Assembly: GCF_006345805.1 (NCBI RefSeq)
Contig: NW_021832586.1
Span: 21,781 to 85,780, forward strand
Length of the DNA: 64,000 nt
From: Octopus sinensis
Taxonomy: Eukaryota
Direction: 5' to 3'
Shown here: positions 1,790-63,399 of the stretch, piece after piece
Position numbering within the stretch: position 1 is the first letter of the stretch
How the letters are laid out: each line of letters starts with the position of its first letter
Notes under the pieces: model-generated
What the model saw: only the letters and a program-made list of their open reading frames with translations
Databases searched by the model: none
Told to the model about the DNA's origin: nothing
Translations under genes and position numbers: made by a program

Positions 1790-2097
1790 GAGTGAGAGAG
1801 CAGTGCATGCCATCAAAGTGACACTGGGGTAAAATATACGAAGCCCAATATACCCATCATGACTACCCGTCTGATAAAGGTACACCAGGCACATGCATCA
1901 CAACCATATGTGCGCGACATGGTGATCTCATATCAAGATAAACAGCACATGACCTTGCAGGTGGGGCCCAGTTAGAATTTTCTTCAGGTTGAGTAGCCCA
2001 TCCCGCTCAAAAGGTCCTTGAATAAGGGTTGTTTAATGATGTTGAAAGAACCACCCATGTTTCCAGAGGTGAATTATTCAAACCCCAAACAATCCCT
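1790..2097 (-). mobile_element. ~535-nt non-coding retroposon, copy 1 (5'-truncated)
   Basis: Near-identical to 4699-5005 and embedded in (TTA)n. Strand assigned from truncation polarity. Confidence 0.8.
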
Positions 2098-3962: not shown

Positions 3963-3977
3963 TTATCATTATCATTA

Positions 3978-4648
3978 TATGAAACCTCACAGCTTATTTT
4001 GCTGGATATTATGGAAAGTGTCTGCTGTCTAAAACCAGCAGACTAAGGTGACACTTGTTTACCGGTCATACTTCAAGAACCCTGCGAAGAATTCTTGCAG
4101 TTCCAAGCAATAATAACATTTGTAGGTGTTCTACTTTCACACTTGCACTGATCTTTTTCAGCCATGTTAGTAGTTGAGTGTTGATACTTTCACTTGGACC
4201 AGTTACTATTGGTATCACGTCTTCTCTCTTCATTGACCATAGCCTTCGTATTTTCCAACTTAAATCGTCGTTTTAAAAATTTTTTTCTCTACTTTCACAT
4301 TGACCCTGTCGTCATCGGGGCAAGTCGATACTCATATGTGTTCTTTCTTTTTTATTCACTCCGCCAATGTCCGGTTTCCTAAGTCTGGTCAGGTGATCGC
4401 ACTGGATCGTTACATCCCACAGGATTTTGAAGTTCTCATTTTCGATAACTCCTTCTAGGGTTTGTTTATACCACGTCTTTACTTTTAGTAGGCTGTGATT
4501 TCCAAAGAGCTCCCAGTGGATCATTCTTGCCACATTGTCATGGCGACGTTTATAATCGCGTTGTACCATTTTCGGAGCCATACTGTTTCACACCTCTCAC
4601 CACACATTCTGCATTTGTTTCTATCGATAGTGTTGTCAATTCTGCACA
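3978..4648 (-). mobile_element. R4/Dong-clade LINE, family D, 3' fragment
   Basis: ORF 4312..4581 has YKRRHDNVARMIHWEL, KILWD and RKPDI. 3' UTR matches 21770-21925. Confidence 0.85.
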
Positions 4649-4661
4649 TTATTATTATTGA

Positions 4662-4694
<33 letters not shown>

Positions 4695-4698
4695 CATT

Positions 4699-5233
4699 GA
4701 GTGAGAGAGCAGTGCATGCCATCAAAGTGACACTGGGGTAAAATATACGAAGCCCAATATACCCATCATGACTACCCGTCTGATAAAGGTACACCAGGCA
4801 CATGTATCACAACCATATGTGCGCGACATGGTGATCTCATATCAAGATAACAGCACATGACCTTGCAGGTGGGGCCCAGTTAGAATTTTCTTCAGGTTGA
4901 GTAGCCCATCCCGCTCAAAGGTCCCTGAATAAGGGTTGTTTAAGGGTGTTGAAAGAACCACCCATGTTTCCAGAGGTGAATTATTCAAACCCCAAAGAAT
5001 CCCTCTCAGCACATGGCTATGATGCTCCCCACTACTTCTGCTCGTGATCAGAGATGCACATATCGTCAGCCACTAAGGGACATGCTCAGCTGGTTAAGGT
5101 CAACAACTGACAAGCAAATCTGTGGTATTGAGCAGAATATTTGCTGTAGCCCATCTTTTATACCAAAACAAAACAATGTACATGATAACACTTCCAATCA
5201 GTTAAGATCAGAAGCCATGAGAGCCACTGCCTG
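4699..5233 (-). mobile_element. ~535-nt non-coding retroposon, copy 2 (apparently full length)
   Basis: Longest of five copies, with (TTA)n on both sides and no credible ORF. Confidence 0.85.
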
Positions 5234-5271
<38 letters not shown>

Positions 5272-9694: not shown

Positions 9695-9731
<37 letters not shown>

Positions 9732-9745
9732 TAATAACACTAAAA
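9150..9745. repeat. (GAT)n/(AAT)n microsatellite tracts
   Basis: Seen directly, interrupted by about 200 bp of unique sequence. Confidence 0.9.
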
Positions 9746-9749
9746 GTAA

Positions 9750-9966
9750 TAAAGGTTCCAAATAGTGGCACAAGGCCAACAATTCTGAAGAAAAGAGTAA
9801 ACCGATTATATCGACCTTAGTGCTCAAATGATACTTATTTTACCGTTCCAGAAAGAATGAAAGGAAAATCCGATCTTAGCGAGGTTTGAACTCAGAAAGT
9901 AGAGACGGGCGAAATGCCGCTAAGCATTTCGTCCGGCATACTAACGATCTGCCTCCTTGGTGCCTT
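9750..9966 (-). mobile_element. SINE family 2 copy
   Basis: Reverse complement reads GGCAGATCGTTAG...GAAATGCTTAGCGGCATTTCG...TTCTGAGTTCAAA, as in the copies at 28125, 34617 and 45195. Confidence 0.7.
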
Positions 9967-10070: not shown

Positions 10071-10459
10071 TAATAATAATAATAGTAATAATAATAATAA
10101 TTATTATTATTATCACCCACGACACACACACTCACAGAGTTCAGCCAACACAAACCTCACCTCGGCTCTTTAGATGTTAACCAAATATGAAAGTATTATT
10201 TGACAGGCAAGAACTGTCGTTGAAGACAGTCAGCCAGCCAACCATCAATCCAGCCAACGAGACAGACAGACACTACTGTGATGGTGATAATGATAAAAAA
10301 CAAAAATAACAATAATAAGATACTGCTGTGACTACACATAAAACAATATCATTGATGATGATGATGATGATGATGGCGATGGTGATGATGATAATGATGA
10401 TGGTAATGGTGGTGATAATGATGATAGTGATAATAACGGCGATGATAATAACGATAATA

Positions 10460-14496
<4,037 letters not shown>

Positions 14497-14591: not shown

Positions 14592-15091
14592 GGCAATACC
14601 AGACAGTGGCTCTCGTGGCTTCTGATCTTAACTGATTGGAAGTGTTATCATGTACATTGTTTTGTCTTGGTATAAAAGATGGGCTACAGCAAATATTCTG
14701 CTCAATACCACAGATTTGCCTGTCAGTTGTTTGACCTTAACCAGTTGAGCATGTCCCTTAGTGGATGACGATATGTGCATCTCTGATCACGAGCAGAAGT
14801 AGTGGGGGAGCATCATAGCCATGTGTCGAGAGGGATTCTTTGGGGTTTGGATAATTCACCTCTGGAGACATGGGTGTTTCGTTCAACACCCTTAAACAAC
14901 CCTTATTCAGGGACCTTTTGAGCGGGATGGGTTACTCGACCTGAAGAAAATTCTAACTGGGCCCCAACTGCAAGGTCATGTGCTGTTTATCTTGATATAA
15001 GATCACCATGTCGCGCACATATGGTTGTGATGCATGTGCTTCGTATATTTACCCCAGTGTCACTTTGATGGCATGCACTGCTCTCTCACTC
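14592..15091 (+). mobile_element. ~535-nt non-coding retroposon, copy 3 (both ends present, ~50-bp internal deletion)
   Basis: Reverse complement of 4699-5233, in (AAT)n. Confidence 0.85.
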
Positions 15092-22698: not shown

Positions 22699-22835
22699 GC
22701 TATGCCAACATTATAAGCTATGCCAACATTATGGCTATGCCAACATTATGGCTATGCCAACATTATGGCTATGCCAACATTATGGCTATGCCAACATTAT
22801 GGCTATGCCAACATTATAAGCTATGCCAACATTAT
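22697..22835 (+). repeat. Eight tandem copies of a 17-18-bp unit (core GCTATGCCAACATTAT) at a Dong 5' junction
   Basis: Counted directly. The unit is single-copy in other family-A elements, e.g. near 25101 and 41736. Confidence 0.92.
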
Positions 22836-23365
22836 GGAATAACAACAGAAAAAAGATGGTATAGGCACACACCAGAAAAGGTCACAGAAAACAAGAAAGC
22901 AACCATACTCTGGGATATGTCGATACACACAGATAGAGAAATTAAGGCCAACAGACCAGATATAGTTGTCAGAGATCATGAAGAAAAAATGCTTTCTAAT
23001 TGATGTATCAATACCGGCAGATGACAACGTGTCTCTAAAAGAAATGGAGAAACTCTCAAAATACAAAGACCTGGAAATAGAGGTAACTAGAATGTGGAAT
23101 CTGAAAACAGAAACAATTCCTATCATAGTAGGAGCATTAGGCATGATAAAAAATATTCAGACAAATACATAACAAAAACACCAAGACTTCCAAACACATA
23201 TAACATACAGAAAATTGCACTACTAGGCACTGCACACATCCTACGCAGTACACTTTCTATACAATAACCATCAAAGCATCACAACAAATCACAGCACATA
23301 CCCAAGGCACACAGAGCTGCGCTCGGTAGTGAAGTGAAAGCACGCTATAAAAATAAAACTACTGA
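22697..23365 (+). mobile_element. R4/Dong LINE, family A, 3' fragment
   Basis: KANRPDIVV, FLIDVSIP, KLSKYKDLEIE and the family-A 3' end. Confidence 0.92.
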
Positions 23366-23395
23366 ATAATAATAATAATAATAATAATATTAATT

Positions 23396-25651
23396 CAGAG
23401 ACAATGCCTGAATGGCTAACGAAGGGGAAAAACATCTTAATTCCCAAATCAAATGAGTCAGCAAAACCAGAAAACTACAGACCAATAACCTGTCTCCCTA
23501 CAATGTACAAGGCATTTACTGCAGTGATATCGCAAAGGTTGAGCAAGCACCTGGATGAAAACAACCTGTTTCCAGAAGAGCAGAAAGGATCCCGCAAAGG
23601 CTCTTATGGCTGTAAAGATCAACTAATGATTAATAAAGCCATTACTGAAGACAGCTACAGAAAGAAGAAAGGTCTCGGTATGGCCTAGATCGACTACAAA
23701 AAGGCGTTTGATAGCATCCCCCACACATGGATCCTCGAAACACTAGCCATTAACAAAGTAGCACCAACAATTATAAAATTCAGAGCACACTCTATGAATA
23801 AATGGCAAACAGTGCTACAGCTCAAAACAAACGAGGGACTCATAAAAACCAAAGTCATCCCCATTAAAAGAGGAATATCCAGGGAGATACGCTCTCTCCA
23901 CTCCTTTTCTGCTTGGCACTGTCAACTATCTGATATGCTAAATAGAACTGGACGCGGATATAAATGTTACGGCAAAACGCTCAAAAACCTTTTATATATG
24001 GATGACCTAAAACTCTACGCTGCTAATGACAAACAGCTGGAAACACTATTAAAGACAGTTCATGGATTTACCAAAGAAATAGATATGAAATTTGGATTAG
24101 AAAAATGTGCCAAATTAACCATGAAAAGAGGAGAACTAGTTAAGAGTAGCAACATCACACTAGATAAAACCAATGAAATAAAAGAATTAGACCAAAGCCA
24201 AACTTACAAATACTTAGGAATCCATGAACTAGATAAGATACAACACACACAAATGAAAGAGAAAATAAAAAAAGAATATTATAGACGAGTTAGATCAATA
24301 CTAAAAACAGAGCTCAATGCTAACAACAAAATAATAGGGATTAACACTTTAGCTGTCCCAGTTATAAGTTACAGCTACAATATCCTTAACTGGACACTAA
24401 ATGAACTGACCAAAATAGATAGGAAAACAAGAAAAATAATGACAGGATCTAGGATGCATCACCCAAAATCTGACATACAAAGACTCTATATACAACGTAT
24501 AGAAGGTGGTAGAGGCCTTATACAGCTGCAAAACTACTATAAAATAACCACCATAGGACAGCAAAAATATCTACTTCAGAAGGAAGGAAAAATGATACAA
24601 TAAGCGCCAAAACACGAGCAAAACAAAAAGCTGTTCTCAGTATTTAAGGAAGCTGACAAATATAAACAAGAAATCATACCACCTAATAAATATGAAGTAG
24701 AAGAAGAAGCTGAAGAAACAACAAAAGCTATAAAACAAATGAAATCCAAACTAAAAATAGAACAGCAACGAACCATGATAAAACGATGGCAAGAAAAGCC
24801 CCTTCATGGTAAATACTGGACTAAACTAAACGCAAAAGAAATAGACAAAGAAAAATCCCAGCAATGGCTGAGAAGCTCAGGACTCAAAGCGGAGAAAGAG
24901 GGATCTTTAATTGCAGCAAGAGACCAAAGCCACCCCACCAGAAATTACCAAAACATGTAATGAAAAGAAATATAACAAGTAACTGCAGAATATGTGGAGA
25001 TGGATAAGAAACAATAAATCATATTATCTCTGGCTGCCCAGTCCTGGCTAAGAAGAAATATATTCACAGACATGACAGAGTTGGAACCTACATACATTGG
25101 AAGCTATGCCAACATTATGGAATATATAACAACAAAAAAAAGATGGTATAGGCACACACCAGAAAAGGTCACAGTAAACGAGACAGCAACCATACTCTGG
25201 GATATGCCGATACACACAGATAGAGAAATTAAGGCCAACAGACCAGATATAGTTATCAGAGATCATGAAGAAAAAATGCTTTCTAATTGATGTATCAATA
25301 CCGGCGGATGACAACGTCCTCTAAAAGAAATGGAGAAACTCTCAAAATACAAAGATCTGGAAATAGAGGTAACCAGAATGTGGAATCTAAAAACAGAAAC
25401 AATTCCTATCTTAGTAGGAGCATTAGGTATGATAAAAAAATATTCAGACAAATACATAACAAAAACACCAGGACTTACAAACACTTACAAACATACAGAA
25501 AATTGCACTATTAGGCACTGCACACATCCGAAGCAGAACATTTTCCATACAATAACCATCAGAGCATCACAACATATCACAGCACATACTCAAGGCACAC
25601 AGAGCTGCGCTCGGTAGTGAAGTGAAAGCACATTATAAAATAAAACTACTG
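23396..25651 (+). mobile_element. R4/Dong LINE, family A, 5'-truncated (RT to 3' end), disrupted ORF
   Basis: YRPITCLPTMYK, EQKG, LYMDDLKLY, CCHC, RLE and 3' UTR, with stops and frameshifts. Confidence 0.93.
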
Positions 25652-25682
25652 CATAATGATAATAATAATGATAATAATAATG

Positions 25683-25722
<40 letters not shown>

Positions 25723-26104: not shown

Positions 26105-26583
26105 ACATTGTTTTGTCTTGGTATAAAAGATGGGCTACAGCAAATATTCTGCTCAATACCACAGATTTGCTTGTCATTGTTTGATCTTAACCTGTTGAGC
26201 GTGTCCTTTAGTGGCTGACGATATGTGCATCTCTGATCACGAGCAGAAGTAGTGGGGGAGCATCATAGCATGTGTTGAGAGGGATTCTTGGGGTTTAATA
26301 ATTCACCTCTGGAAACATGGGTGGTTCTTTCAACATCTTAAACAACCCTTATTGAGGGACCTTTTGAGCGGGATTGTTACTTAACCTGAAGAAAATTCTA
26401 ACTAGGCCCCACCTGCAAGGTCATGTGCTGTTTATCTTGATATGAAATTACAATGTCGCACACATATTGTTGTGATGCATGTGCCTGGTGTACCCTTATC
26501 AGACGGGTAGTCATGATGGGTATATTGGGCTTCGTGTATTTTACCCCAGTCTCACTTTGATGGCATGAACTTCTCTCTCACTC
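26105..26583 (+). mobile_element. ~535-nt non-coding retroposon, copy 4 (5'-truncated by about 60 nt)
   Basis: Matches 14654-15091 and ends CTCTCTCACTC(AAT)n. Confidence 0.85.
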
Positions 26584-26597
26584 AATAATAATAATAT

Positions 26598-26820
26598 GGT
26601 ACCGGCTCTCATGGCTTCTGATCTTAACTGATTGGAAGTGTTATCATGTACATGGTTTTGTCTTGGTATAAATGACGTGCTACAGCAAATATTCTGCTGA
26701 ATACCACATATTTGCTTGTAGTTGCTTGACATTAATCAGTTGCGTATGTCTCTTAGTGGTTGACGATATGTGCATCTCTGATCACGAGCAGAAGTAGTGG
26801 GGGAGCATCAAAACCATGTG
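26598..26820 (+). mobile_element. ~535-nt non-coding retroposon, copy 5 (5' part only)
   Basis: Matches 14608-14825 and lies in tandem with copy 4 across a short (AAT)n spacer. Confidence 0.8.
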
Positions 26821-26977
26821 GTGTGTTATTATGCGCAGGTCATATAAATTTAATATTTACCCAATATTTACTGGGTATTAACCGAAACAGCTGTAAGGGA
26901 TAATGATTAATGTGTTGTTAATAATAAACAATTATGACCTTCCAATTTCCACTTTCTTTTCTTCTTTTGTATGAATA

Positions 26978-38971: not shown

Positions 38972-38972
<1 letters not shown>

Positions 38973-39810
38973 TATTATCTCCATCTACTCGATATTATCC
39001 CCACCTACTCGATATTATCTCCACCTCTAACACAACACATGTAAACATGCGTGGAACATCACGATCATCCCCGACCTCAAACACCATGTACAAAGGAACT
39101 ACGAAGAAATTAAATGCCACCGATACTATTCAACCCAAGAATAACAATCGAGCGGTACGTACATTAAACTTACAACACAAAATGTACGAAAAACTACACG
39201 TGCGAAATAATGTGACAACAGAAATAAACAGACCGGTACCCTACGAAAATGACGACCGTCAAAATAATGGGCCAGACGTTGTACCTCATGTCCCGCAAAT
39301 AAAACCCAAAAGACGTAAATGGACACGTGAGGAATACATTTCTATCTTACACGCATACTTCACAGCAATGCTCTACCCAAAAAATGAAAATACAACATCA
39401 CATACATATAAAATATGGAAGGAAAATAATAGAGATATAGACTTGGATACAGCAATGAACCCTAATAAATTAGCTAACGTCCGAAGATACATTCTCAAAG
39501 CCAAAAAAATATCAGAAATAGAAATAGAACATTTAACTAGAATGTGGAATCTGAAAACAGAAACAATTCCTATCATAGTAGGTGCATTAGGCATGATAAA
39601 AAAATATTCAGACAAATACATAACAAAAACACCAGGACTTACAAACACATATAACATACAGAAAATTGCACTACTAGGCAGCACACATCCTACGCAGAAC
39701 ACTTTCCATACAATAACCATCAGAGCATCACAACAAATCACAGCACATACCCAAGGCACACAGAGCTGCGCTCGGTAGTGAAGTGAAAGCACGCTATAAA
39801 AATAAAACTA

Positions 39811-39889: not shown

Positions 39890-40186
39890 CAGAGACAATG
39901 CCTGAATGGCTAACGAAGGGGAAAACCATCTTAATTCCCAAATCAAATGAGACAGCAAAACCAGAAAACTACAGACCAATAACCTGTCTCCCTACAATGT
40001 ACAAGGCATTTACTGCAGTGATATCTACTGAATAATAATATAATAATAATAATAATAAAATAATAATAATAATAATAATAATCATAATAATAATAAAATA
40101 TAATAATAACAACAATAATAATAATAATAATAATAATAATGATAAAAATAATAATAATAATAATAATAAAAATAATAATAATAATA

Positions 40187-40237
<51 letters not shown>

Positions 40238-42286
40238 GGCTCATAAGGCTGTAAAGATCAACTAATGATTAATAAAGCCATAACTGAAGACAGCCATAGA
40301 AAGAAGAAAGGTCTCACTATGGCCTGGATTGACTACAAAAAGGCGTTTGATAGCCTCCCCCACACATGGATCCTCGAAACACTAGCCATTAACAAAGTAG
40401 CACCAACAATCATAAAATTCATAGAGCACTCTATGAATAAATGGCAAACAGTGTTACAGCTCAAAACAAACGAGGGACTCATAAAAACCAAAGTCATCCC
40501 CATTAAATGAGGAATATTCCAGGGAGATACGCTCTCTCCATTCCTTTTCTGCTTGGCACTGTCACCTCTATCTGATATGCTAAATAGAACTGGATGCGGA
40601 TAAAAATGTTACGGCAAAACGATCAGCCACCTTTTATATATGGATGACCTAAAACTCTACGCTGCAAATGACAAACAGCTGGAAACACTATTAAAGACAG
40701 TTCATGGATTTACCAAAGAAATATATATGAAATTTGGATTAGAAAAATGCGCCAAAGTAACCATGAAAAGAGGAGAACTAGTTAAGCGTAACAACATCAC
40801 ACTAGATAAAACCAATGAAATAAAAGATTTAGACCAAAACAAACTTACAAATATTAGGAATCCATGAACTAGATAAGACACACACACACAAATGAAAGAG
40901 AAGATAAAAAAAGAATATTATAGACGAGTTAGATCAATACTAAAAACAGAGCTCATGCTAACAACAAGATAATAGGTATCAAACACTTAGCTGTCCCAGT
41001 TATAAGTTACAGCTACAATATCCTTAACTGGACACGAAATAAACTGACCAAAATAGATAGGAAAACAAGAAAAATAATGACAGGATCTAGGATGCATCAC
41101 CCAAAATCTGACATACAAAGACTATATATACAACGTATAGAAGGTGGTAGAGGCCTTATGCAGCTGCAAAGCTACTATAAAATAACCACCATAGGACTGC
41201 AAAAATATCTACTTCTGAAGGAAGGAAAACTGATCCAGATAGCGGCAAAACACGTGCAAAACAAAAAACTGTTCTCAGTATTTCAGGAAGCTGACAAATA
41301 TAAAGAAGAAATCATACCACATAATGAACATGAAGAAGAAGAAGAAGAAGAAGATGAAGAAACAACAAAAGCTATAAAACAAATGAAATCCAAACTAAAA
41401 ATAGAACAGCAACGAACCATGATAAAACGATGGCAAAAAGCCCCTTCATGGTAAATACTGGACTAAACTAAACGCAAAAGAAATAGACAAAGAAAAATCC
41501 CAGCAATGGCTGAGAAGCTCAGGACTCAAAGCAGAGACAGAGGGATTTTTAATTGCAGCACAAGACCAAAGCCTCCCCACCAGAAATTACCAAAAACATG
41601 TAATGAAAAGAAATATTACAAGTAACTGCAGAATATGTGGAGATGGACAAGAAACAATAAATCATATTATGCCCTGTCCTGGCTAAGAAGGAATATATTC
41701 ACAGACATGACAGAGTTGGAACTTACATACATTGGAAGCTATGCCAACATTATGGAATAACAACAGAAAAAAGATGGTATAGGCACAACCAGAAAAGGTC
41801 ACAGAAAACGAGAAAGCAACATACTCTGGGATATGCCGATATACACACGATAGAGAAATTAAGGGCAACAGACCAGATATAGTTGTCAGAGATCATGAAG
41901 AAAAAAAAATGCTTTCTAATTGATGTATCAATACCGGCAGATGACAACGTGTCTCTAAAAGAAATGGAGAAACTCTCAAAATACAAAGACCTGGAAATAG
42001 AGGTAACTAGAATGTGGAATCTGAAAACAGAAACAATTCCTATCATAGAAGGTGCATTAGGCATGATAAAAAAATATTCAGACAAATACATAACAAAAAC
42101 AACAGGACTTACAAACACATATAACATACAGAAAATTGCACTACAAGGCACTGCACACATCGTACACAGAACACTTTCCATACAATAACCATCAGAGCAT
42201 CACAACAAATCACAGCACATACCCAAGGCATACAGAGCTGCGCTCGGTAGTGAAGTGAAAGCACGCTATAAAAATAAAACTACTGA
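39890..42286 (+). mobile_element. R4/Dong LINE, family A, 5'-truncated, interrupted by TACTG(AAT)n at 40026-40235
   Basis: Collinear with 23396-25651: WIDYKKAFDS, YMDD, RLE and 3' end. Confidence 0.93.
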
Positions 42287-42337
42287 ACAATAATAATAAT
42301 AATGATAATAATAACAACAACAACAACAATAATAATA

Positions 42338-42399
<62 letters not shown>

Positions 42400-42467
42400 G
42401 ATAATAATAACAACAACAACAATAGCATCAGCATCAGCAACAACAACAACAACAACAAGAATAATAA

Positions 42468-42960
42468 TACTGCTCACAGCTATGGTCACCCACCAGTGTG
42501 AAATTAGCAACGGACCTTGAAGCAATCCAGAGAAGATTCACAAACAAGATCGTCTCTTTGCAACAGCTCAGAGAAGACGGGAGAGGTATGCAGTAATATA
42601 TATCTGGAAGATCCTGGAAGGAATTGTGCCAAATTTTGGCATTGAAAACTACACCAATGCCAGAACGGGACGACACTGCATAGTGCCAAAGATACCAGCA
42701 ATGCCATCACGCTTCAGGACCAGCTTCTGCAACTGCCTGGGTTTCAAGGGGCCACAGTTTTTTAATATTCTCCCAAAGAGTCTGAGGAACTTGCACAAAG
42801 TAGATGTAGGGGTTTTTAAATCAAAGCTGGACATCTTCCTGTCGAGAGTCCCAGATGAACCTACCTCACGGCAAGAGGTGCAAATGAGGGTAGCTGTATC
42901 AAACTCCATTCTTCACCAAGTGCCACATATTAGAGGAGGCTCTTAGAAATAACAGTGTAG
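42468..42960 (+). mobile_element. CR1/L2-type LINE 3' fragment
   Basis: LEAIQRRFT...IWKILEG...GPQFFNILPKSLRN...FKSKLDIFL is a typical CR1-group ORF2 C-terminus. Confidence 0.75.
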
Positions 42961-43571
42961 CGCAAAAACGGCGGTGCATAAGCATGGCTGCAGCTCTGAG
43001 CTGAAACTTTAAAAAAAAAAAATAATAATAATAAAATAATAATAATGATCCTTTCTACTATAGGCACAAGGCCTGAAATTCTGGGGAATGGGGTCTAATC
43101 GATTACATCGACCACAGTGTTTCACTGGTACATAATTTATCGACACCGAAATGATGGTAGACGGAAATTGAAAGCCCATCATATATATATGTGTGTATGT
43201 GTGCGTGCGCGCGTTTGTGAGTGTGCATTTCTGTATGTGCGTATATGCGTGCATATGTGTGGGTGCGTGCGTGTGTGCTTGCGTGTGCGTGTGTATGTGT
43301 GCGTGTGTGAATGTTTGCGTATCTTTTCGCATGTGTTTCTCTCTCAGCACTGCTTGTGTATGTTTACTTCCCTATCATCAAGCAGTTCGACATAAGAGTC
43401 CGACAGAGAAAGTACAGGACTTTAAATAATTAAATACTAGGGTCGATACATTCGGTTAAAAATTCTTCAAGGCCGCAGTCTAATGAGTGAAAGAAGAAAC
43501 TATGGCATATATATATATATATATAAACGGCGGTGCATCAGCATGGCCGCAGCTCTGAGCTGAAACAAGCA

Positions 43572-43666
<95 letters not shown>

Positions 43667-44174
43667 TGTACATATATATATATATAAATACATACGTATT
43701 AAACATATATTCTTAGCCATATACACTAGTATACACATGAAACCTGCTAACCTTCAGTCTGTCACCACAAGCTCCCAACTCTGCCATCATACACACTTTC
43801 AATTGTATACATGGTAATTATTTACACACATTGGTGTGTAAATAAAAATCCGCGTGTACAGCTACATTTAATTGAAATAAACACACAGATCCTCTCTAGA
43901 TTTACGTTCTCGCCTGAAATGCTCATCACAACAAACTGTATCATCTTCCTGGGTGGTAACTGTGGCTCTGTCGAGGTTGTTGCAAGTACAGGTAGCTTTC
44001 ACATGTTATCGTAATATCCTTCTTTACCTCACCTCCAACAACCACCTCGTCCACCGACCCATTCAATCGTTCAACCTACCCTTCCACTTAGCCTACCTGA
44101 CTCACCTGAATTTATTTCACTCGCCCATGTGCACTCGATGAACTTTTTTCTCTTACTCTTCCTTCTTCTTTTTG

Positions 44175-44236
44175 TGTGTATATGTATATACATATACAAA
44201 TATAAACAAGTACGTGTACATATACATTATATATAT

Positions 44237-44269
<33 letters not shown>

Positions 44270-44294
44270 TATATGCATATATATATATATATAT

Positions 44295-44325
<31 letters not shown>

Positions 44326-44483
44326 CATTATATATATATATACATATATACATACATATATATATATATATAATATATATATATATATATACATACATAT
44401 ATATATAATACATACATATATATATATATATAATATATACCATATATATATATATTATATATATATATATAATATATATATAT

Positions 44484-44552
<69 letters not shown>

Positions 44553-44612
44553 CACATATATATATATATTAATATATTACATTCATATATATATATATAT
44601 ATATATATATGA
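44175..44612. repeat. Long (TA)n/(TACA)n microsatellite
   Basis: Seen directly. Confidence 0.95.
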
Positions 44613-44967
44613 TATACATGCTTTTGTGATACTCCGTCTCTTTTCCCTTCACTTATTTCATTATTACTCTCTCCCTCTTTCTTCATTTCCCTTTCCATCT
44701 ATCCCTCTCTTCCCCCTCTCTATCACCATTCTGCCTCTCTTTCGATATGTTTGTTTTCTTTTTTTTATTAAGCTCTCTGCGCTCTGATAAAATTTTCCGA
44801 AGAAACGTATGAAATGGACGTGAGTGGGGGTAGTGCTGGTGTTGAAATGATTCGTGTATGGGACGACGGTGGGAAAGGAACGAACGAGGGTGTGGAGAGA
44901 ATACGAGTGGCAGCAAGTAAATCTTCTTCATTGTAAAGTTTAATAATAACCGTAAAAAAGGCCATAT

Positions 44968-45422
44968 GATGGCGGAATCGTTACACGCTGGACGAAATAC
45001 TCAGCGGTGTTTCGCCCGCCGCTACGTTCTGAGTTCAACTACGGCCGAGGTTGACTTTCCTTTTCATCCTTTCGGGGTCGATTTAATAAGCATCAATTAC
45101 GCACTGAGGTCGATTAAATATCCTCCCCCAAGCTGCCCTTGTGTCAAAAATTTTTAAATCATCATTATTATTATTATTATCATTATTATGAAGTCGACGG
45201 GCTGGCAGAATCATTAGCGCACTGGGCAGAATGTTTAGCGGCAGTTTGTCCGGCTTTACGTTCTCAGTCCAAATTCAGTCGCGGTCCAATTTATCTTTCA
45301 TCCTTTCAGGATCGATAAAATAAGTACCAGTTGAGCACTGGAATCGATGTAACCCCTTCTTCGAAGTTACTGGCCTTGTGCCAACATTTGAAACCAATAA
45401 TAATCGAAAGATTAAGCTACTG

Positions 45423-45466
<44 letters not shown>

Positions 45467-46008
45467 GCTAATTTTTTTTTGTGGGATACATAGATATAAT
45501 AGAAAAATGTGAAGGCAAAATTGTAAAACAATATGTTAAGAAAAAAATTAATTACATAAAATAAACACTGATTTCAAATTTTGGCATAATGCCAGCAATG
45601 TCAGGGGCTGGTTACGTAGATTACATCGGCCCCGGTACTCAAATGATGCCCATTTTATCGAACCTGAAGGGTGAAAGGGAAAGTCGATCGCGGTGGAATT
45701 TGAGCTCAGAACGTGCAAACAGACGATATGCCGTAATATAAAGCATCTCGCCCGGCGTGCTAAAGATTCTACCAGCTCGTCGCATTAATAATGATGGTTT
45801 CAAATTTTGGCACTGAGTCAGCAGCTTCGGGAATGAGTAAGTCGATTACATCGGCCATAATGCTCAACTGATACTTATTTTATCGACCACGAAATGACGA
45901 ATGGCAAAGTCTACTGCAGCGGAATTTTGAACTCAGAAAGTGAAGACGGACAAAATGCCACTATGCATTTTGCCCGGCGCGCTAACGATTTTGCCAGATC
46001 GCCGCCTT
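44968..46008. mobile_element. Cluster of four SINE family 2 copies (+,+,-,-)
   Basis: About 44968-45155 (+), 45195-45397 (+), 45570-45783 (-) and 45795-46008 (-), with a central (CTA)n. Confidence 0.75.
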
Positions 46009-46547
46009 ATAAAATAAAATAAATATATGAAATAAATATTGGTAACCCATCTAGAAATGGATGAGAAACCGCTCCCAAGGTAAGTTTGGTCAACTTTTTA
46101 TTCAAACCAATTTCTGTTCCGATTAGCTTCCATAAAATAGAACATCTGATATTAATCGTGAGCAGTCACTCCATTTCGCGGGGCTTATGACTCCGATGGG
46201 CCACCCTTGTCCATATTTTGAGGAGAAAAACAGTAGTACCGGATCCTAGAACACCTGACATCTCGACGGGGATCGACACAAACTCATAGCTGCCAGCCAG
46301 GACCCTGAATGCATCTCGGCGCTTGGGTTTCACTAGCACAGTAAATGATGAAAAGAAAGGTAGAAGCTTATGATATTAGAACATTTAAGTACAAAAGCAA
46401 AACACAGGAAAGAACAGAAATGAGGAAAGGAAAGGGTGAGAAAAGGTGGGGATAAAGCAGCAGAAGATGGAGGAGACGGGGTGATGGGAGATAAATCCCC
46501 GCTATCTCCAGCAACGAGTCCACCTCATCACAGGACTTCAACCTCCT

Positions 46548-47020
46548 TTGGTCTTGTCAATGATGGACACTCGACCGCTAGAGGCAGCAGCGACCCATCT
46601 CCCCGCCAGCGATATATAGATTAATAGTGCCAGAACACGCACTGGTTTCACGATTAGCCAGTTAGCTTGTTAAAAAAAATAATTATATATTAGCGAGAAA
46701 AGTAGTATTATTACCGAGAGGTAATATTTATATTCACTGAAATGGGGACATTCTATTAAAGCAAACTATACTGCGATAGCTACCATGAGAGAAACTCTAA
46801 TGCCGACTTTTTTTGGCGCAAAATGCTCTCTTGTTTACATCGGTAGCGGAAAGGTAAGCCTCCGTCACCTCCAGCGCTGGGACCACTAGATCATGTAATT
46901 TTGACCTTGTTTGTTCTTGTCAATGATGGACACTCGACCGCTAGTGTTAGCAGCGATTCATCTGCCCACCAGCGATATATAGATTGACAATGCCAGAACA
47001 GGTGCTGGTGTCACGATTAG
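46548..47020. repeat. Imperfect ~110-bp direct repeat (46548-46657 and 46911-47020)
   Basis: TCTTGTCAATGATGGACACTCGACCGCTAG...CCAGCGATATATAGATT...TCACGATTAG occurs twice. Confidence 0.85.
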
Positions 47021-47036
47021 TTTAATATATATATAT

Positions 47037-47097
<61 letters not shown>

Positions 47098-48129
47098 ATA
47101 AGCGACAGAGGCAGTATTACTAACGAGAAATAATATTTGAGTAGTGATTTCTATAGAGAGGCAAGGGGAAGATACAGAAAAGGAGAGAGAAGGAGAGAGA
47201 GATAGTGAAAGAGGGAGAGAGGTAAAAAGAGAGAGAGAGAGACCATCTCCTACGTGAAGATGCAACGGTGCAATAATATGTTTGACACATTCGCACTCAA
47301 TGATACAATAAGCCACTAGTATGTAGGTGTATTTGGCAACAAGAACTAAAAACGAGCATTTTTAATAAATATTAGATATAAGACTGTGTTTTCTGTTTAT
47401 GGTATTTTATATCTACCTTTTATATCTATATTTAACGTCTGTTGACAAATAGTTACATTTACGATTACATATTTCGTATTTTTAGTGAACAAACGTGTAT
47501 ATCTGTCAGAGCTGTTGCGTGCGAGTGAGTACGGAAGACTAATATTTAAAAACGATATTATTTATACATAAGCAAACACATACGATTTATCCATACATAT
47601 CCACCTGAAATTTAAACACATACACACATACATAAACTCACCTACACACTCGTTTATTAACATGAAAAATAAACACATATGTAGCTATTTGTCGCCAAGC
47701 AATAAGAGATTGGCAAAGACGAGATGGGTAAATTAGGCTAAAATCTATATTTGGAATCGGCTCTCTTACATAAGCTACAATTCAGCCAATCACGAATCAC
47801 TTCTACACACACTCACACGCGTACACACAGATACACGCACACATACACACACATACAAACACACACACACACACAAACAAACAAACACGCACGCCTATAC
47901 ATACACAACAAATATCAAAGTTACGTCTCGCCAGATTGGAATGTCTAATATGTCACTTTTATATATGGGACGCATTCCACTGCTCAGGCGCTGCATGTAC
48001 CCGGCGAAGCCGAAATACCGGGACTGGTAGCGACAACTGCAGAGTTGCCTGGATGATGACTAGCTGATCCTACCTTGGTCATAATACCTTTTTCTATCTT
48101 TGCAAAAAACAATAGATGGCTCCGGATGA

Positions 48130-48500
48130 CCTCTATCAGTCGAACAATGTAGTCAGTAGAATATTGATGTCAGCATTCTATTGGGAACGAGAGGTGGAAA
48201 AGAAAGGTTGATGTTCTCATGCAAGCTCTATGCATCGACGAAAGTTTTGAAAATGATCTTCATAACTTCGAGAAACTATCTTTGCTGTGCTCTCAGTCGA
48301 AGGAGAGGGCCTTTCTCCGTCCGGGTTGCGGATCCATGCAATAAGCTGCCGGACGAGATGGTGAAGATGCCGACGACCGCTCGGTTCAAAGTCTCTCTTG
48401 ACCAGAAATGGCCTGAACTCTTTGCATGAACACCCTCCCTGTACATAACGCCATGTCCCCCTACATGGCCTTGCTTTTTGCTTTTTGAGCTAAAAACTTA
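48130..48500 (+). mobile_element. CR1-like LINE 3' remnant
   Basis: RRGPFSVRVADPCNKLPDEMV...FKVSLD resembles the CR1 FSxRVxxxWNxLP...FKxxLD motif. Confidence 0.65.
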
Positions 48501-48569
48501 ACATTTTGTTAATTGCTATTTTAAAAGATAGCCAGCATGTGCGAAAATGCCGTCGTCTGTATGTGTCTG

Positions 48570-48830
48570 AGAAAAGACATGGACACAATGCCCCGTACGC
48601 TTGCTTGCTTCTTATGCATTTCATGGGGTTGGACACATCCCAGGCTAGTGGTCCCAGAAACACCATGCGTAGAGCTGACTAGGTACACCAGTGCTCTCCA
48701 CCGCTGCCTGTCTCGTGCCATCCCCTCTGCATTGCCCCAGGTGACATCGAGCCTCCACAGATCTTCCTTAATCACGACCAGCCTTCTCGTGTAGGACCTG
48801 CCACATGGCCCCTTCAATCATGCAGGTGTT
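48570..48830 (-). mobile_element. RTE-like LINE 3' remnant
   Basis: IKEDL...TW..AEGMARDRQRWRALV is a typical RTE C-terminus. Confidence 0.6.
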
Positions 48831-50409
48831 GCGTTGAATGAGAGTAAAAATTACATCTATAAACATACTAGGATTGTGTGAGCTAGCCGATGAAAGATAA
48901 AAATGTCAAGAACAAAGTTCTCACAAACATATTAGAATATTTTCAACTATCTGGCAGATACTGTTATATTTTTCGAATGTAGGCATGTAGTAATTGCTCT
49001 GGGTCATCCAACTAATCATGCCCAGACAGGATATTGATTAAAATTCTCAAACATTGGCAGTGTAGAATTCCAATCTTTTAACAAGTCGGCTGAGCAGTTA
49101 TGCGGTTATTGTCTCAAAAACAAATGTAGCACCCTCTAAATGGGACGATTAGAACAGAATCAATAAAGTTTAGAAAGAAGCTACAACAGAGAAAATAAAT
49201 TAGAAATGGGCTAGTAAATAAATTAGGTATTACGTAAAGCATCGCAACCAATGTTTCAGCAACGAGAATAGTCCTCAATTACTTCTACGCAAAACGTCAA
49301 GATTGTATGGTAGTACCAAAGTGTATATTCTAAGAGACAAAGGAACCAAAGCTTCTCAATGTACCTGAGTTGCAAAGCTGCAATAAGGCAACAATGCCAT
49401 CTCATGATGTCATGGACCGGCCAGACTGTGTGCTTCTCTATTCCAATGCATACAGCTCTCCAGCAAGAATTTTGTTCGAATACTTTCGAAGAAAAATACG
49501 TGTTGCGAAAACCCGATAACAGCAGCTGAATTATTATAAATTACCTGGTTTGGTTAGTCTACTGTATGAAATTGACATAAATATGCCAACTTTTATGAAT
49601 AAATCACTCGTATAAACCACTCGCTTCAGAACTAAAGAGTAATCGATTCTGCGAACTAAGGAAGCATAGCACTACAGACAAAGAGCAAGAACGATCTCCA
49701 CTTCATAAATTTGTCAAATTCTGAACTTAACCTTTTGGCCATGATGTTTAACGAAGTGACTGGTTCTTGATGTCAGCAGTTTGGTCGGGAAAGTACAGAC
49801 TTGAGTTATCCACTGCCTATCTATTAATGACAATGTCCGTCGCATGAGATAATTGGTGGAATGTGCGAGCGGTTTTGGTGGTGCTGGTGGTGGTAATTGT
49901 AGTCGTCGTCGTAGTAGTAGTAACTGCGGCGGTTATGTTGCCAGTCATCACTGTTTACTGTTAAATCTCTGATTTAGCAGACGCTATTGCCAAAAGCTAT
50001 TGCGTTTGTGGCCATTTCCATTTATTATTCAAACCATGATGCAGCAAAGGCTAGACAATCTAATATACCAGTTCTTTTTCTTTTTTTTTAAGATAGTAAG
50101 ATGCGGTTTGAGGTTGATATAGTTGGTATATCCAGCAGGTTAATCGACCGCGGTGGTATTTGATTCATAATTGCTTCGAGCTATGTTCTTTAAATCAATA
50201 TATATATATATATATATATATATAGATGAGTGTATTTTTACCTTGTTACCAATTAACACGGAAAAATAAATAAATAGTTACCAGGGCAGCAAAAAAGTAA
50301 AGATGTTGTAACTCCTTGTTTATAAAGGTAGAAACTTCGTGTTTACGTTGAATATTTTGAATAATATGAATAAAAAATGGAGTTAACGCAGGTGTAAACA
50401 AGTATTTTT

Positions 50410-50495
50410 ACTTTCGACACATGTTTCGAAAATTCCACTGATACTATTCAAAAGAATAAATGGTATAAACAATGCAATCTTCTCTTCGGGAAAGT
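50410..50495 (-). ncRNA. Hammerhead ribozyme variant (upstream inverted repeat copy)
   Basis: Reverse complement of 52832-52915 with the same core. Confidence 0.65.
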
Positions 50496-50880
50496 GAAAA
50501 AAACGAAACTCGTCAATACGACGTTTTAACAAAAAAATGATGGATTTGTATAGCGATAGACAGAACGCTATTAATATTGTTTAAAAAAACGTTATATGAT
50601 ATAACGTCATAAGTAGCTAACAGAAAGAGTAGGGATATTAATAGTGAATGTTAAATATAAAGGAAATTAAAGTTTAAATTATATATAATGATAGAGACTA
50701 CTTATATGCACTAAATGTATGTTTTTGCCAATGCTTACATCTGTATGCTCGCTCTATAACCGTGTTTACTAGAGTATTTTTAGAAAAAATAATGAAAAAT
50801 AGCTCAGAATTGCAGAGAAGACAGAATTTCTTGCCTTTGTCATATGGTATCGAAATTGAGAGGATCAACCATTCTAAATC

Positions 50881-52550
50881 CCAATTTTTTTACTAACCCA
50901 TCATTAAGGCTTATCTGCCCTTCTAGCTCTGACATCGGTATCCTTAGTAAAAATATACTAGATAAATATATTCCTAATTTAATCAAAACATTAAAACTTA
51001 GTTTATAGACTAATTCATTTGACGTAGTTGACTGGTTTAGGTCTATTAACAGTAAGGTGAGTACAAAGTTTATCCAGTTTGATATTTCCAATTTTTATTC
51101 GTCTATTAATCCAATAGTACTTAATAAGGCACTTTGGCGTGCTCATAACAAAGCTGGTCTCACCCGAGAAGTAATTAATGTTGTGTTGGCAGCCAGAAGA
51201 TCTATTATTAAATTTGATAAGTTGTGGGTCCGTAAAGACACACCAGATAGTTTCGATATACCAATGGGAAGTTCTGAGTCAGCACAGATAGCTGATTTGG
51301 TCTGTATATATATTCTTTTTGAAATGGCTGAAGAGTTCCCTAACATTTATGGAGGTCTATATCGTGATGATTGTTTACTTTACCTCCAAAATGTTTCCAA
51401 CCAAATTGTACAAAAAGTTAAGAATAGTTTAGTTAATTTTTTCAGTAGAATGGGCTTAAAAATCGTTTTTGATGACGATCTGACGAAGGCCAACTTTTTA
51501 GATATTGCGCTTAATTTACACAGTGACTCTTACTTCCCATATCATAAACCGTTGACCAATCGTAAGTACATTAGCAAATTTAGTAATCATCCTGGAGCAA
51601 TTACTAAGAATTTAGTTAAGAATATTTCATTTAGATTATCTAAATTATCTTCTAATGTTGATATTTTCAATAATAACGCTGAATTCTATAACTCTGCCTT
51701 AATCAAAGCAGGTTATACAGAAAAAATTTTCTACATTGATTCTGCTCAGTCTAATTGTAAATTCAATAATGTAGATAAGATTTCTAGTCGTAAAAGAATT
51801 ATTGATAACAAACATAACTTACCTACCGATACAAAGCGAATGAAGGCAGATAACCCTTATTTAATCCCCTATTATCGATCTAAAAGTAAATATAACACCT
51901 TCAAAAGTAATTACGCTATGAATACTAGTAAAAATATTTGGTTAATAATTCCTTACGGGAGACAAATTAAATCTAATCTCCCACTGCTGTTTCGTCAAGC
52001 TATTGCTAGGAATTTTCCAAACAATTCTAGATATTACTCTATAATTAATTCACATTAGGTTAGGATAGGTTTTTCAAACACAAAAAATCTCTTGCAAATT
52101 ATATCTTCTCATAATAACAAACTGTTAAATATTAATACATTTACTAATACTAACATTAATTTAGCTAATACCATCCAACCCTCTAGAAATATTAATAATA
52201 AGGTTATTGTATCTGAAGTCAATTCCAATAGAATTACATTTATGTCAAGTAACTCTAAGATTAAAAATTCTATATGCCAGTGTATAATCAGTACTCGTAA
52301 TAAAGTACGATTTTACATTGGTAGCACATCGTTAGAGTTATCTAAAAGAATTTCTATCCATTACTCAACATTTAGGGATAGAAATAAACGGAATAGTACC
52401 GGTCTCAGCAAACTGATTTGGGATTTAAAAGACCACAATGAACAATTTCATTTAGAATGGTTGATCCTCTTAATTTCGATACCATATGACAAAGGCAAGA
52501 AATTCTGTCTTCTCTGCAATTCTGAGCTATTTTTCATTATTTTTTTCTAA
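50881..52550 (+). pseudogene. Penelope RT plus GIY-YIG endonuclease with premature stops
   Basis: NPSLRLICP..SDIG, QFDISNFYSSI, IPMGS, GLYRDD, NFLDI, YHKP, SNHP, then FYIGST...KRISIH...STGLSKLIWDLK...CLLCNSE. Confidence 0.88.
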
Positions 52551-52831
52551 AAATACTCTAGTAAATACGGTTATAGAGCGAGCATACAGATGTAAGCATT
52601 GGCAAAAACATACATTTAGTGCATATAAGTAGTCTCTATCATTATATATAATTTAAACTTTAATTTCCTTTATATTTAACATTCACTATTAAATCCTTAC
52701 TCTTTCTGTTAGCTACTTATGACGTTATATCATATAACATTTTTTTAAACATATTAATAGCGTTCTGTCTATCGCTATACAAATCCATCATTTTTTGTTA
52801 AAATGTCGTATTGACGAGTTTCGTTTTTTTC

Positions 52832-52915
52832 ACTTTCCCGAAGAGAAGATTGCATTGTTTATACCATTTATCTTTTGAATAGTATCAGTGGAATTTCGAA
52901 ACATGTGTCGAAAGT
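52832..52915 (+). ncRNA. Type I hammerhead variant with CCGAAGA core and long stem II
   Basis: ACUUUC-CCGAAGA-[53-nt stem II region GAAGAUU...AAUUUC]-GAAAC-AUGU-GUC-GAAAGU: perfect 6-bp stem I and GUC cleavage triplet. Confidence 0.68.
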
Positions 52916-52954
52916 AAAAATACTTGTTTTACACCTGCGTTAACTCCATTTTTA

Positions 52955-52997
<43 letters not shown>

Positions 52998-53041
52998 TAT
53001 ATATATATAATATATATATATATATAATATATATATTATAC

Positions 53042-53432
53042 TGGGTGTTAATAAGCGTGTTGCCCAACCACATGGTTCCGGATTCAGTCTTACTGCGTGG
53101 CAAGTATTTTCTACTATCTCCCCTTGCTGACCAAAGCCTAGTGAGTGGATTTGGTAGGTAAAAATTGAAAGAAACCTGTCGTAATATGTGTGTGTATGTG
53201 TTTGTACGTGTGTCTTTATGTCTGTGATTGCCTTTCACCAACGCTCGACAAACGTTCTCGGTGTGTTTAGGCCTTCGTCACTTAGCGGTTCGACAAAATA
53301 GACCGAAAGTATAAGTACTGGGCTTTAAAAATATAAGTACTGTAGTCGATTCATTCAAGTAAAAATTCTTCAAGGCGGTGCCCCGGCATGGCCGAAGTTT
53401 AATGACCAAACAAAACAAATAAAAGATAAAAG
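53042..53432 (+). mobile_element. SINE family 1 copy
   Basis: CCAACCACATGGTTCCGG...GAGTGGATTTGGTAG...AAGGCGGTGCCCCGGCATGGCC. Confidence 0.75.
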
Positions 53433-54899
53433 GTAGAAGATGTGTATGCAAGTAATGAAGAATCGATAACGGCAGACATGCGATGTTCTGGTTTGTGAGA
53501 AACCAATATTGATTACCCTCATCTATGTCTAATTGTTTATAAAGATTAAATAGAGAACTTGTTCAGTTTTGTTGGGTAAATTAATTAATTAACCAATTAA
53601 TTAATTAATTAGATAATAATAGACATGAAACAGAACAGACATAGTTGTCAGGCGATAAAAGACACCTGATTCGTGTGTGTACATAGTCATCCACGTCGTA
53701 CCGTCTTCGTTGTCGCTATCGCCAGATTTGTCATCATCGTCGCCGTTGTTGTTGCCATAGACGGCGTCGCAGAAAAAATGTTTTATTCGTTTAATCAATT
53801 AAATAATGAATAAGTTATCCCCCAATCATTCTCTTCGGAGCTTAAATGTTGTTATGGTAGAATTAAAATAATAAATTATTGTATGGATCTAAGTATTTAA
53901 GGGGTGGGACGCCTCATGGCCCCAGCAGGTTTCATATGTAGCTGTAGGCTCGTGATTGGGTGAATAGTATCCCTGGCTAACGGTGAAATTTTAATTCCTT
54001 GTGTATCCATAAGTATCAAAAAATTCCATCAAAGAGATCACGACAAAAATATATACATTATGGAAATATAATGTTTATTCAAAGTAAGCGAGGGGTAAAG
54101 CAGCTGAAGATGCAGGGGAATAGTGAAATGGGTCACATATCCCAGAGCAAGCGGTGTGTCCAGCCACGCCCCGCAAAGGTGTTGCCGCGGAGAAGGGCCA
54201 ACGACACTCGTTACTGCAGCCACTCTACCTTGTGGGATAATTTCTCCGATGACCCACCATTATCCCTATTTTACAGAGGAAGTTGGCAATATGGAGTCCT
54301 AGAACCCTTGACCTCTCAAAGGCGACCAGCGCATACTGATAGCGGCCGACCAGGCAGCAGTATTTATTGATTTTTTCTCTCCTCTGCGTTACGGGTGGCG
54401 ACACTAGGGTTTGCAGCCGATGCTGCAAGATAAGAATCGGAAAACTTGTCGCTACACTTCGCGTCCCAGACTAGAGATCTGCCTCAAGTTGAACCAGAAA
54501 TCCAGCCGCATCAAGGCTCCTACTAATTATATCATTCAGAGTGGCGTATTATCGGCCCGCGAAAGGCTGCAGAATGAAGGATACAAACCGAATTCGTCTA
54601 CTACTGCTCTGCGGTGACATTTGTGCTGCTTGCACACGCAGAGATCGAGGCGTTGGACCACTCTAAAACGATAGAACTTGAACTCGAAACGTAAAGAGCA
54701 GGAACATATACCTCAGCAATTCTTCTTGCTCGATACTCTAACAACTTCGCTCAATTTTGTCTTGCACTGACACTTAATCTATCCCGACAAGAAGATTAAA
54801 TCTGAACGTCGCAGGATTGAACTCAGAGCAAAATGAGCCGGAACAAATACTGCACGGCAATTCTCTCTGATCTCCAATGACTTTATTAATTGGCTATTT

Positions 54900-55100
54900 T
54901 TTATCTTTTATAATTTTCTTGTTTCATTCATTGGGCTGCGTCCATTCTGGAGCACCACCGTGAAGAATTTTAGTCGAATATATCGACCCCAGTACTTGTT
55001 TATCTTTTTAAAGTATGGTACAAATTACAGAGACGTAAGCACGCCAACACTAGTTGTCAAGCGGTAGTGGGGGCAAACACAGGCGCACACACACACACAC
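54900..55100 (-). mobile_element. SINE family 1 tail
   Basis: Similar to 36790-37000. Confidence 0.6.
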
Positions 55101-55507
55101 ATCTATGTTGAAGTTATTGTTGTCGATATTGCTGTAGCTGCAGTTGCTGTTGTTGTGTAACCTTAGATCAACTCTGGTCGCTTATGCCAGGGGCGTAGTC
55201 AGCAGAACAACAGCTCAGGTCTTTCAGTGATAGTCCACATCCACTAACAACAGACCAATTGGCACACTCGGACATTTAGTACTATTTTCTGAAACTCCTT
55301 TTCTTTTTCCATTGTTCAATGTTTTGCATGTCCGTGGAACATGGAGATGAACACAACGAAGGAAGGTAATGACGACTTGGCTAGAGCGTAACTATGTCTT
55401 AACATTTATTGGCTAAGGGTGATCCAGCAAATTGTTTGTGGTTTATGGGGATATTAATGCTTGTTGCCGTTGCGTGTGCAAATGTGTGTACATGTGTGTA
55501 TGTGTGA

Positions 55508-55541
<34 letters not shown>

Positions 55542-55642
55542 AAGAGAGACTGTGTGTGTATGTGTGTGTGGGTCTGTCTGTCTGTGTGCACGTATGTGTC
55601 TTGTCCTTCTGGTTTTAACTTAAAATTATCTTTTCGTTTTCA

Positions 55643-55855
55643 AGGTGGCGGTCTGGTAGAATCTTCAGCACGGCGCGGAGAGCGTTCAGCAGCTTTTCAT
55701 CTGTCTTTATGTTCTGATTTGAAATACCGCTGGGGTCAATTTTCCTTTCTTCATTACGATGTCGATAAGATAAGTACCAGCTGAGCACTGGGAACAATAT
55801 AATCAACTTACCTCCTCCCCCGGAATTGCTGGCTATGTGCCAAAATTTAAAACGA
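55643..55855 (+). mobile_element. SINE family 2 copy
   Basis: GGTGGCGGTCTGGTAGAATC...GTCGATAAGATAAGTACCAG. Confidence 0.65.
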
Positions 55856-63287: not shown

Positions 63288-63399
63288 TTATTATTTTTAT
63301 TATTATTATTAATTATTATTATATTATTATTATATATTATTATTATTATATTATTATTTTATTATTATTATTGATATTTTATTATTATATTATTATTAT

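Follow-up and report, generated by a model that had tools for sequence, protein, structure and literature searches.

A non-coding 556-nt retroposon of octopus (AAT)n microsatellites and its probable copying by Dong-type LINEs

The (AAT)n microsatellites of the octopus genome carry at least 12,000 copies of a non-coding family of 556 nt. The reading that we favour, and consider probable, is that this family is a non-autonomous retroposon, which is copied by target-primed reverse transcription with the restriction-like endonuclease (RLE) machinery of Dong/R4 elements and which propagates itself from many AAT-embedded copies. Since the target, the orientation and the junctions of the copies match those of the co-resident Dong LINEs, we strongly infer that a LINE of the Dong type mobilises it.

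Copies, target and orientation of the family

The family was recognised in a window of 64,000 nt (the whole stretch of DNA analysed), in which the original prediction had placed five copies, all of which could be located. The copy at 4699-5233 (minus strand) covers family positions ~18-556 with ~98% identity to the family majority, and on the same strand it is bordered by one (AAT)n array directly on its 3′ side (4648-4698) and another directly on its 5′ side (5234-5271). Two 5′-truncated copies, starting at ~position 250 (1790-2097, minus strand) and at ~position 72 (26105-26583, plus strand), also have AAT on both sides, and so does the copy at 14593-15091 (plus strand), which starts at ~position 11, carries an internal deletion of ~47 nt and is preceded by a Dong 3′ end. 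These four copies have the exact common 3′ end followed by (AAT)n, as had been proposed, and their 3′ ends are oriented relative to AAT as the Dong 3′ ends in the window are, which had likewise been claimed. The fifth copy (about 26598-26823, plus strand) is present, but only as a 5′ fragment reaching to ~position 246: it lies in the AAT run behind the 26105-26583 copy, lacks the 3′ half and has no AAT behind it. The proposed length of ~535 nt was too short, for the 30 best genomic matches give a family of 556 nt, the 5′ end of which (ATGCCCTGATGCAG...) lies 17 nt upstream of the start of the 4699 copy, so that this copy is short of the first 17 nt; an intact 5′ end is found in none of the five window copies. 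The longest sense-strand ATG ORF has 35 aa, in agreement with the earlier claim that there is no ORF, and in both size and lack of coding capacity the family is within the range of SINEs (<700 bp, non-coding; PMC3531059).

In the 2.72-Gb genome the exact 3′ end (25-mer) was found 11,990 times and the exact 5′ end (23-mer) 6,289 times, 3,022 of the latter being preceded by AATAAA; extrapolation from five copies in 400 kb at fixed positions gives ~34,000 copies, with a wide error. The sequence AATRATAA stands directly behind 10,190 of the 11,990 3′ ends (85%), compared with a background of 0.14%. A sample of 40 copies picked by their 3′ end (every second of the first 80 3′-end matches on contig C1) contained 22 full-length copies; AAT was present 3′ of 39 copies and directly 5′ of 27 (background 0.8%), and the 5′ junctions also included a duplicated piece of the element (6/40), short or degenerate arrays (3/40) and plain non-AAT flanks (4/40). 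Furthermore, when 60 copies were picked by their 5′ end, the 3′ end was reached in 52, and AAT lay behind all 52. A pattern for non-AAT 3′ flanks gave 120 matches, and the 100 listed were mostly short ACTC slippages followed by AAT.

The junctions were compared with those of Dong families A, B and C, scoring those with an array within 60 nt. A gap of 0-2 nt from the AAT array was observed at 52 of 75 retroposon junctions, and at 23 of 36 (A), 14 of 23 (B) and 8 of 10 (C) Dong junctions, drawn from 108, 45, 27 and 12 matches, respectively. Genome-wide, neither random orientation nor non-AAT flanks characterise the family: the copies are AAT-targeted in the Dong orientation. The driver could alternatively be an AP-endonuclease LINE (CR1, RTE or Tx1 type) with an RNA ending in AAT, which would make AAT the tail and not the target. 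We consider this very improbable, because AAT stands directly 5′ of most copies, truncated ones included, which a tail cannot explain, and because the junctions resemble those of the three Dong families. Where a truncated copy is preceded by AAT, the array is to be read as the target and not as a tail.

The retroposon is matched by 40,000-56,000 contigs in each of three other DNA runs, which come from organisms B, D and E, and organism E has frequent variants of its own, which indicates that the family is older than the separation of these organisms. A metagenome scan with the 5′ 24-mer of the retroposon gave 0 matches. Small contig pieces of the retroposon were seen in runs X15, X16, X18 and X20 (RNA libraries from insect, feces, marine and organism F material), where diet or contamination is the likely source, and run X24 gave no cover of it. 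In addition, a satellite array of the first ~54 nt of the retroposon fills L136 and L138 (3 kb each, ~5 kb apart; G000:C1 ~68.85 Mb).

Dong elements as candidate drivers and the shared tail

The window is dense in Dong-like LINE pieces, the coding strand of which ends at (AAT)n. A near-full-length element of family C (10110-14397, plus strand), which has an RT domain and a CCHC motif and ends at AAT, represents one candidate driver family; a 5′-truncated element of family A (23389-25684, plus strand) is flanked by AAT arrays and oriented like the retroposon, and a 3′ piece of family E (3963-4647, approximate edges, minus strand) lies directly behind the 4699 copy. In the literature, TAA is given as the target of Dong (PMC3812793, PMC1635306) and Dong-R4 elements are listed in octopus (PMC13282606, PMC9115989, PMC8967140), with 51 families in the annotation of O. 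vulgaris (PMC13282606 supplement).

Dong B has an open frame of 1,195 aa with RT, CCHC and PD..D motifs; the five PDB matches of this frame are R2 proteins or RT-like proteins (best E 5e-29), and the 40 copies scored were all 99-100% identical. Judged by its sequence, Dong B looks currently active. At L233-L241 its 5′ UTR is ~1.0 kb long, the frame is intact and near-identical copies are numerous. The 5′ UTRs of Dong A and B (L036:1375-1520, L240; window 62817-63290, minus strand) carry GGACGT near the start and GTAAGTAAT ~110-140 nt in, which are reminiscent of a downstream promoter element and a splice donor. Tandem repeats of 17 and 20 nt occur at the 5′ junctions of truncated Dong A pieces (window 22699-22837 and 38972-39026), like the 5′ duplications of the retroposon.

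About a dozen Dong 3′ UTR types were seen. The claim that the retroposon has no similarity to the Dong 3′ UTRs of the window holds, as blastn at E 1e-4 finds none to the Dong elements there, and there is likewise none above shuffles to near-complete Dong A, B and C and partial F. The further claim, that a shared 3′ tail is lacking, stands for the nine 3′ UTR profiles of an incomplete library, eight of which gave no match, but two weak hints speak against it: the profile of family E has a 13-nt match (p about 0.02, uncorrected), and 30 nt of the retroposon locally resemble the end of family J2 (p 0.014, uncorrected). An 11-nt motif resembling the 3′ hairpin of the retroposon is present in the 3′ UTR of the family E piece at 3963-4647, and the motif in the hairpin matches the conserved 3′ UTR start of families E and F. 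Because 51 Dong-R4 families are annotated in O. vulgaris, the Dong sample is incomplete and a tail-sharing family is possible.

These hints, the number of families and the fact that the 5′ ends of E, F and J are not among the recovered sequence would fit a retroposon that is an internally deleted Dong derivative (SIDE type, 5′ UTR joined to 3′ UTR) of an unsampled or extinct family. We nonetheless hold such a descent to be distinctly unlikely, given the results with the near-complete families and partial F and with eight of the nine profiles, the absence of an HDV-like fold at the 5′ end, and the finding that only 76 places have a Dong C-terminal motif at 350 nt or less from the retroposon 3′ end, with scattered distances. 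Twenty of these places, together with L117, are neighbours or one-off chimeras: an AAT array lies between the two elements in 12, other short repeats or A-rich spacers in 3, and in 6 the Dong end is joined directly to a retroposon 3′ piece, the family and the point of joining being different each time. These direct joins could be template switches or later deletions. The single chimeras between a Dong coding end or 3′ UTR and a 3′ piece of the retroposon (L365, L366, L367, L372, L378 and L117) involve six different families.

The possibility that the repeat is itself a LINE 3′ UTR was rejected, both at 30 loci (25 places) with foreign sequence upstream of the 3′ motif, which are diverged or truncated copies and form no family, and at the 76 Dong-motif neighbours, among which there is no fixed-distance family. 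In line with the original prediction, the family as such shows no 5′ continuation into an RT ORF. The Dong 3′ UTRs of several families (L071-L100, L245-L264) start with a short C-Y-T/A-A-G motif and a small hairpin, which is perhaps a recognition signal of the Dong enzyme.

RNA intermediate, fold and source of the copies

The fixed 3′ end, the variable 5′ truncation and the 5′ fusions to tRNA, 5S rRNA and own fragments indicate reverse transcription of an RNA. Unusual 5′ flanks were sought with a pattern that matched 166 times; among the 100 matches listed, 26 places were read, many of which have own retroposon fragments at the 5′ junction; at L141 and L205 a tRNA lies between the AAT array and position 1, and at L195, from the 3′-flank set, a whole 5S rRNA is fused to the 5′ end of the retroposon. 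The 17-nt pieces at L201 and L202 are presumably tRNA 3′ ends with CCA; no tool called them. The small-RNA fusions show reverse transcription and fix its polarity, but they do not single out the Dong enzyme; end-to-end template jumps by R2 in vivo are described in PMC3414825. Spread via RNA and a LINE reverse transcriptase, by which SINEs are recognised (PMC3531059), is thus recorded in the copies as a footprint.

Under the Dong-driven reading, a copy would be transcribed from +1 (an A), probably from an internal promoter of a non-tRNA type, into the flanking repeat, so that the folded RNA would end in an (AAU)n tail; part of the retroposon RNA may be A-to-I edited. A Dong protein would then nick an AAT array and prime at the fixed 3′ end, and the tail and the 3′ fold would be recognised rather than a long shared sequence. 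The footprint of the following step is seen in the copies: synthesis is often complete and otherwise leaves a 5′-truncated copy, with frequent jumps of the enzyme at this end to own fragments, tRNA or 5S rRNA. The copy finishes with AAT on both sides, in the Dong orientation.

Folding exceeds that of shuffles on the sense strand (z -2.6; z -3.9 for the window copy) and not on the antisense strand (z +1.1), and no 100-nt segment of the retroposon folds beyond z -2.3. Three domains are predicted for the fold, in which the 3′ end would pair with position ~219-227 (P 0.8-0.97) and not with the 5′ end. The GCAGUG/CACUGC pairing of the two ends that had been suggested was not borne out: its probability is 0.06 for the window copy, full-length majority sequences give 0.00, and roughly every second copy has a base that disrupts it. 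In the covariation test, 4 of 19 fixed changes break a pair, versus 5.8 expected (p 0.19).

Rfam scans gave only low-complexity or chance matches and no relevant family at E<=10, and putative resemblances to motifs of U3, U12, 7SK and 7SL were dropped because Rfam support was absent. Only two-mismatch matches to Pol III box motifs were found, none of them at the head, and three T4 runs are present. A relaxed descriptor for an HDV-like ribozyme matched only folds with two mismatches, and none of these began at the 5′ end; Rfam gave no such ribozyme, and motif searches gave no convincing match to a hammerhead core, a telomerase template, an Sm site or a poly(A) signal. The Rfam scans found no head derived from U1 or U2 snRNA, nor, at E<=10, one derived from tRNA, 7SL or 5S as is usual in SINEs (PMC3531059); ARAGORN found no tRNA on L008, so that the claimed absence of a tRNA-like head agrees with both tools.

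The majority sequence of copies that are 8-12% diverged differs from the youngest majority at only 7-11 of 556 positions (about 2%), and at the rate quoted in PMC13282606 this older group would be roughly 30 million years old. No deletion of at least 15 nt is common to more than two of 280 copies, and no amplified internally deleted variant was found in the three other DNA runs. A conserved host gene would account equally well, or better, for the near-static source sequence and the lack of amplified deletion variants. The copies could accordingly be dead retrocopies of a conserved, undescribed cellular ncRNA gene, with one or few loci and an external promoter, captured repeatedly by Dong proteins; the sharp A-start, the little-changed presence of the family in organisms B, D and E, and the frequency of own fragments as jump templates, which suggests an abundant RNA, also point in this direction. 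We nevertheless regard such a gene as unlikely, since it has no Rfam family, nearly all 3′ exceptions among the matches listed are short slippage followed by AAT, and the 77 young copies form a mosaic of 34 haplotypes with many four-gamete pairs, which indicates many source copies. Moreover, no copy of at least 99% identity with unique flanks on both sides was found at the 26 places read for their unusual 5′ flanks or at 40 loci selected for an unusual 3′ flank, in a search that covered 100 of 166 and 100 of 120 matches, with patterns that each catch an estimated ~40% of random flanks only. No source locus outside microsatellites was found in this search, which by our estimate would miss one roughly half the time.

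Comparison with known systems and the sense-strand A>G excess

The closest known case is EhSINE1/EhLINE1 of Entamoeba histolytica, and SINE-like elements of unknown origin driven by RLE LINEs are already known. EhSINE1 and EdSINE1 (partner R4-1_ED) are likewise ~0.5 kb long and non-coding, with no known small-RNA precursor or clear A/B boxes (PMC2996970, PMC1635306, PMC3716655, PMC3747384), and the partner LINE of EhSINE1 has an RLE (PMC2996970), as the octopus driver would have, judging from target and junctions; abundant discrete transcripts are a further mark of the EhSINE1 type. However, EhSINE1 shares a ~70 bp 3′ end with its LINE, whereas in the octopus retroposon no such end is detectable, the best match among nine profiles of the incomplete library being 13 nt; EhSINE1 also has no fixed target and 445 copies, whereas the octopus retroposon is microsatellite-specific and exceeds it with its at least 12,000. 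The R2 SIDEs of Drosophila, as portrayed in PMC3414825, are non-autonomous passengers of a site-specific R2-type enzyme which use the target of the driver and show jumps to tRNA and small RNAs; the octopus retroposon shares the driver-target feature, with AAT on both sides in the Dong orientation, but neither the 5′ HDV-like ribozyme nor the driver's 3′ UTR of these SIDEs was found in it. With the Dong elements of the R4 clade it has in common the target repeat, the orientation, the junction pattern, 5′ truncation and 5′ duplications, although these are autonomous with a long ORF and the retroposon encodes nothing. The retroposon works like EhSINE1 and R2 SIDEs, yet neither a shared tail such as theirs nor the head of a SINE was detected in it.

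Sadhu of Arabidopsis is a precedent for a headless retroposon, but it is ~900 bp long, has a moderate copy number and is found in a plant, and microsatellite targeting is not described for it in the portions available of PMC2848041 and PMC4494074. SINEU of crocodilians resembles the octopus retroposon in its internal oligo-T runs, which argue against Pol III, and in having the target preference of a site-selective LINE, but it has U1/U2-derived heads and a Tx1 partner (PMC4494074), whereas the octopus retroposon has no snRNA match. No description of the family was found in the literature, including the accessible text of the octopus repeat papers PMC13282606, PMC9115989 and PMC8967140, and PMC11481361 mentions neither Dong nor octopus. 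The first of these papers reports 893 recently active unclassified SINE families (sequences on Zenodo), and an unclassified entry for this family in Dfam, Repbase or the Zenodo library is likely.

Strict recognition of the element's own 3′ UTR is ascribed to R2-type enzymes (PMC3414825), and their known passengers carry the driver's tail. A passenger that has tens of thousands of copies and no detectable shared tail would show how a site-specific reverse transcriptase accepts foreign RNA, and since Dong B is apparently intact and very young, this acceptance is directly testable. The family is in addition a large source of octopod insertion markers.

On the sense strand of 35 newly fetched, independent young copies, 33 A>G were counted versus 14 T>C (7.7 versus 2.4 per kb, p 2e-4), in a test that leaves out 16 subfamily sites and counts shared changes more than once; by distinct sites, the same set gave A>G at 23 of 124 versus T>C at 14 of 167 (p 0.012). 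Significance came with more copies, as the first test, on 49 young copies, had given 22 versus 18 (p 0.11), and in all 117 young copies the counts were 86 versus 47, with p 0.11 by distinct sites. A>G was higher at predicted-paired A, and its excess was 1-7 per kb in five age bins without growth with age, zero being excluded in only two bins. C>T and G>A were symmetric in the retroposon copies, and Dong A, B and C, used as controls, showed no A>G excess. An excess that does not grow with age, together with this symmetry and its absence from Dong, fits a change before insertion, e.g., A-to-I editing. From these sequence counts we lean slightly towards RNA editing, against which weigh the weak neighbour preference (5′ U 7.6, G 5.7 per kb) and the inflation of counts by shared ancestry; the alternative is selection for G-U-compatible changes in the source copies. 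The excess offers a way to ask whether RNA editing is copied back into the cephalopod genome.

Taken further, the copies may be the fossil record of an undescribed, strongly conserved and structured 556-nt octopus RNA, A-to-I edited and then written into AAT by Dong enzymes for which their own 3′ UTR is dispensable, which would make it the first relaxed-recognition passenger of a site-specific R2-type element, with edits fixed in thousands of copies; we offer this as a speculative and rather doubtful view.

The tRNA-type SINE control had higher T>C in the youngest bin, with mixed subfamilies. A tRNA-type SINE is found between AAT arrays in the orientation opposite to that of Dong (window 9730-9966, 43021-43110 and 45164-45330; many loci), and it appears to be a second system using the same AAT microsatellite. 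A further short repeat, also tRNA-like, borders immediately on AAT with its end and has the Dong orientation (L018, L059, L098; 5 cases).
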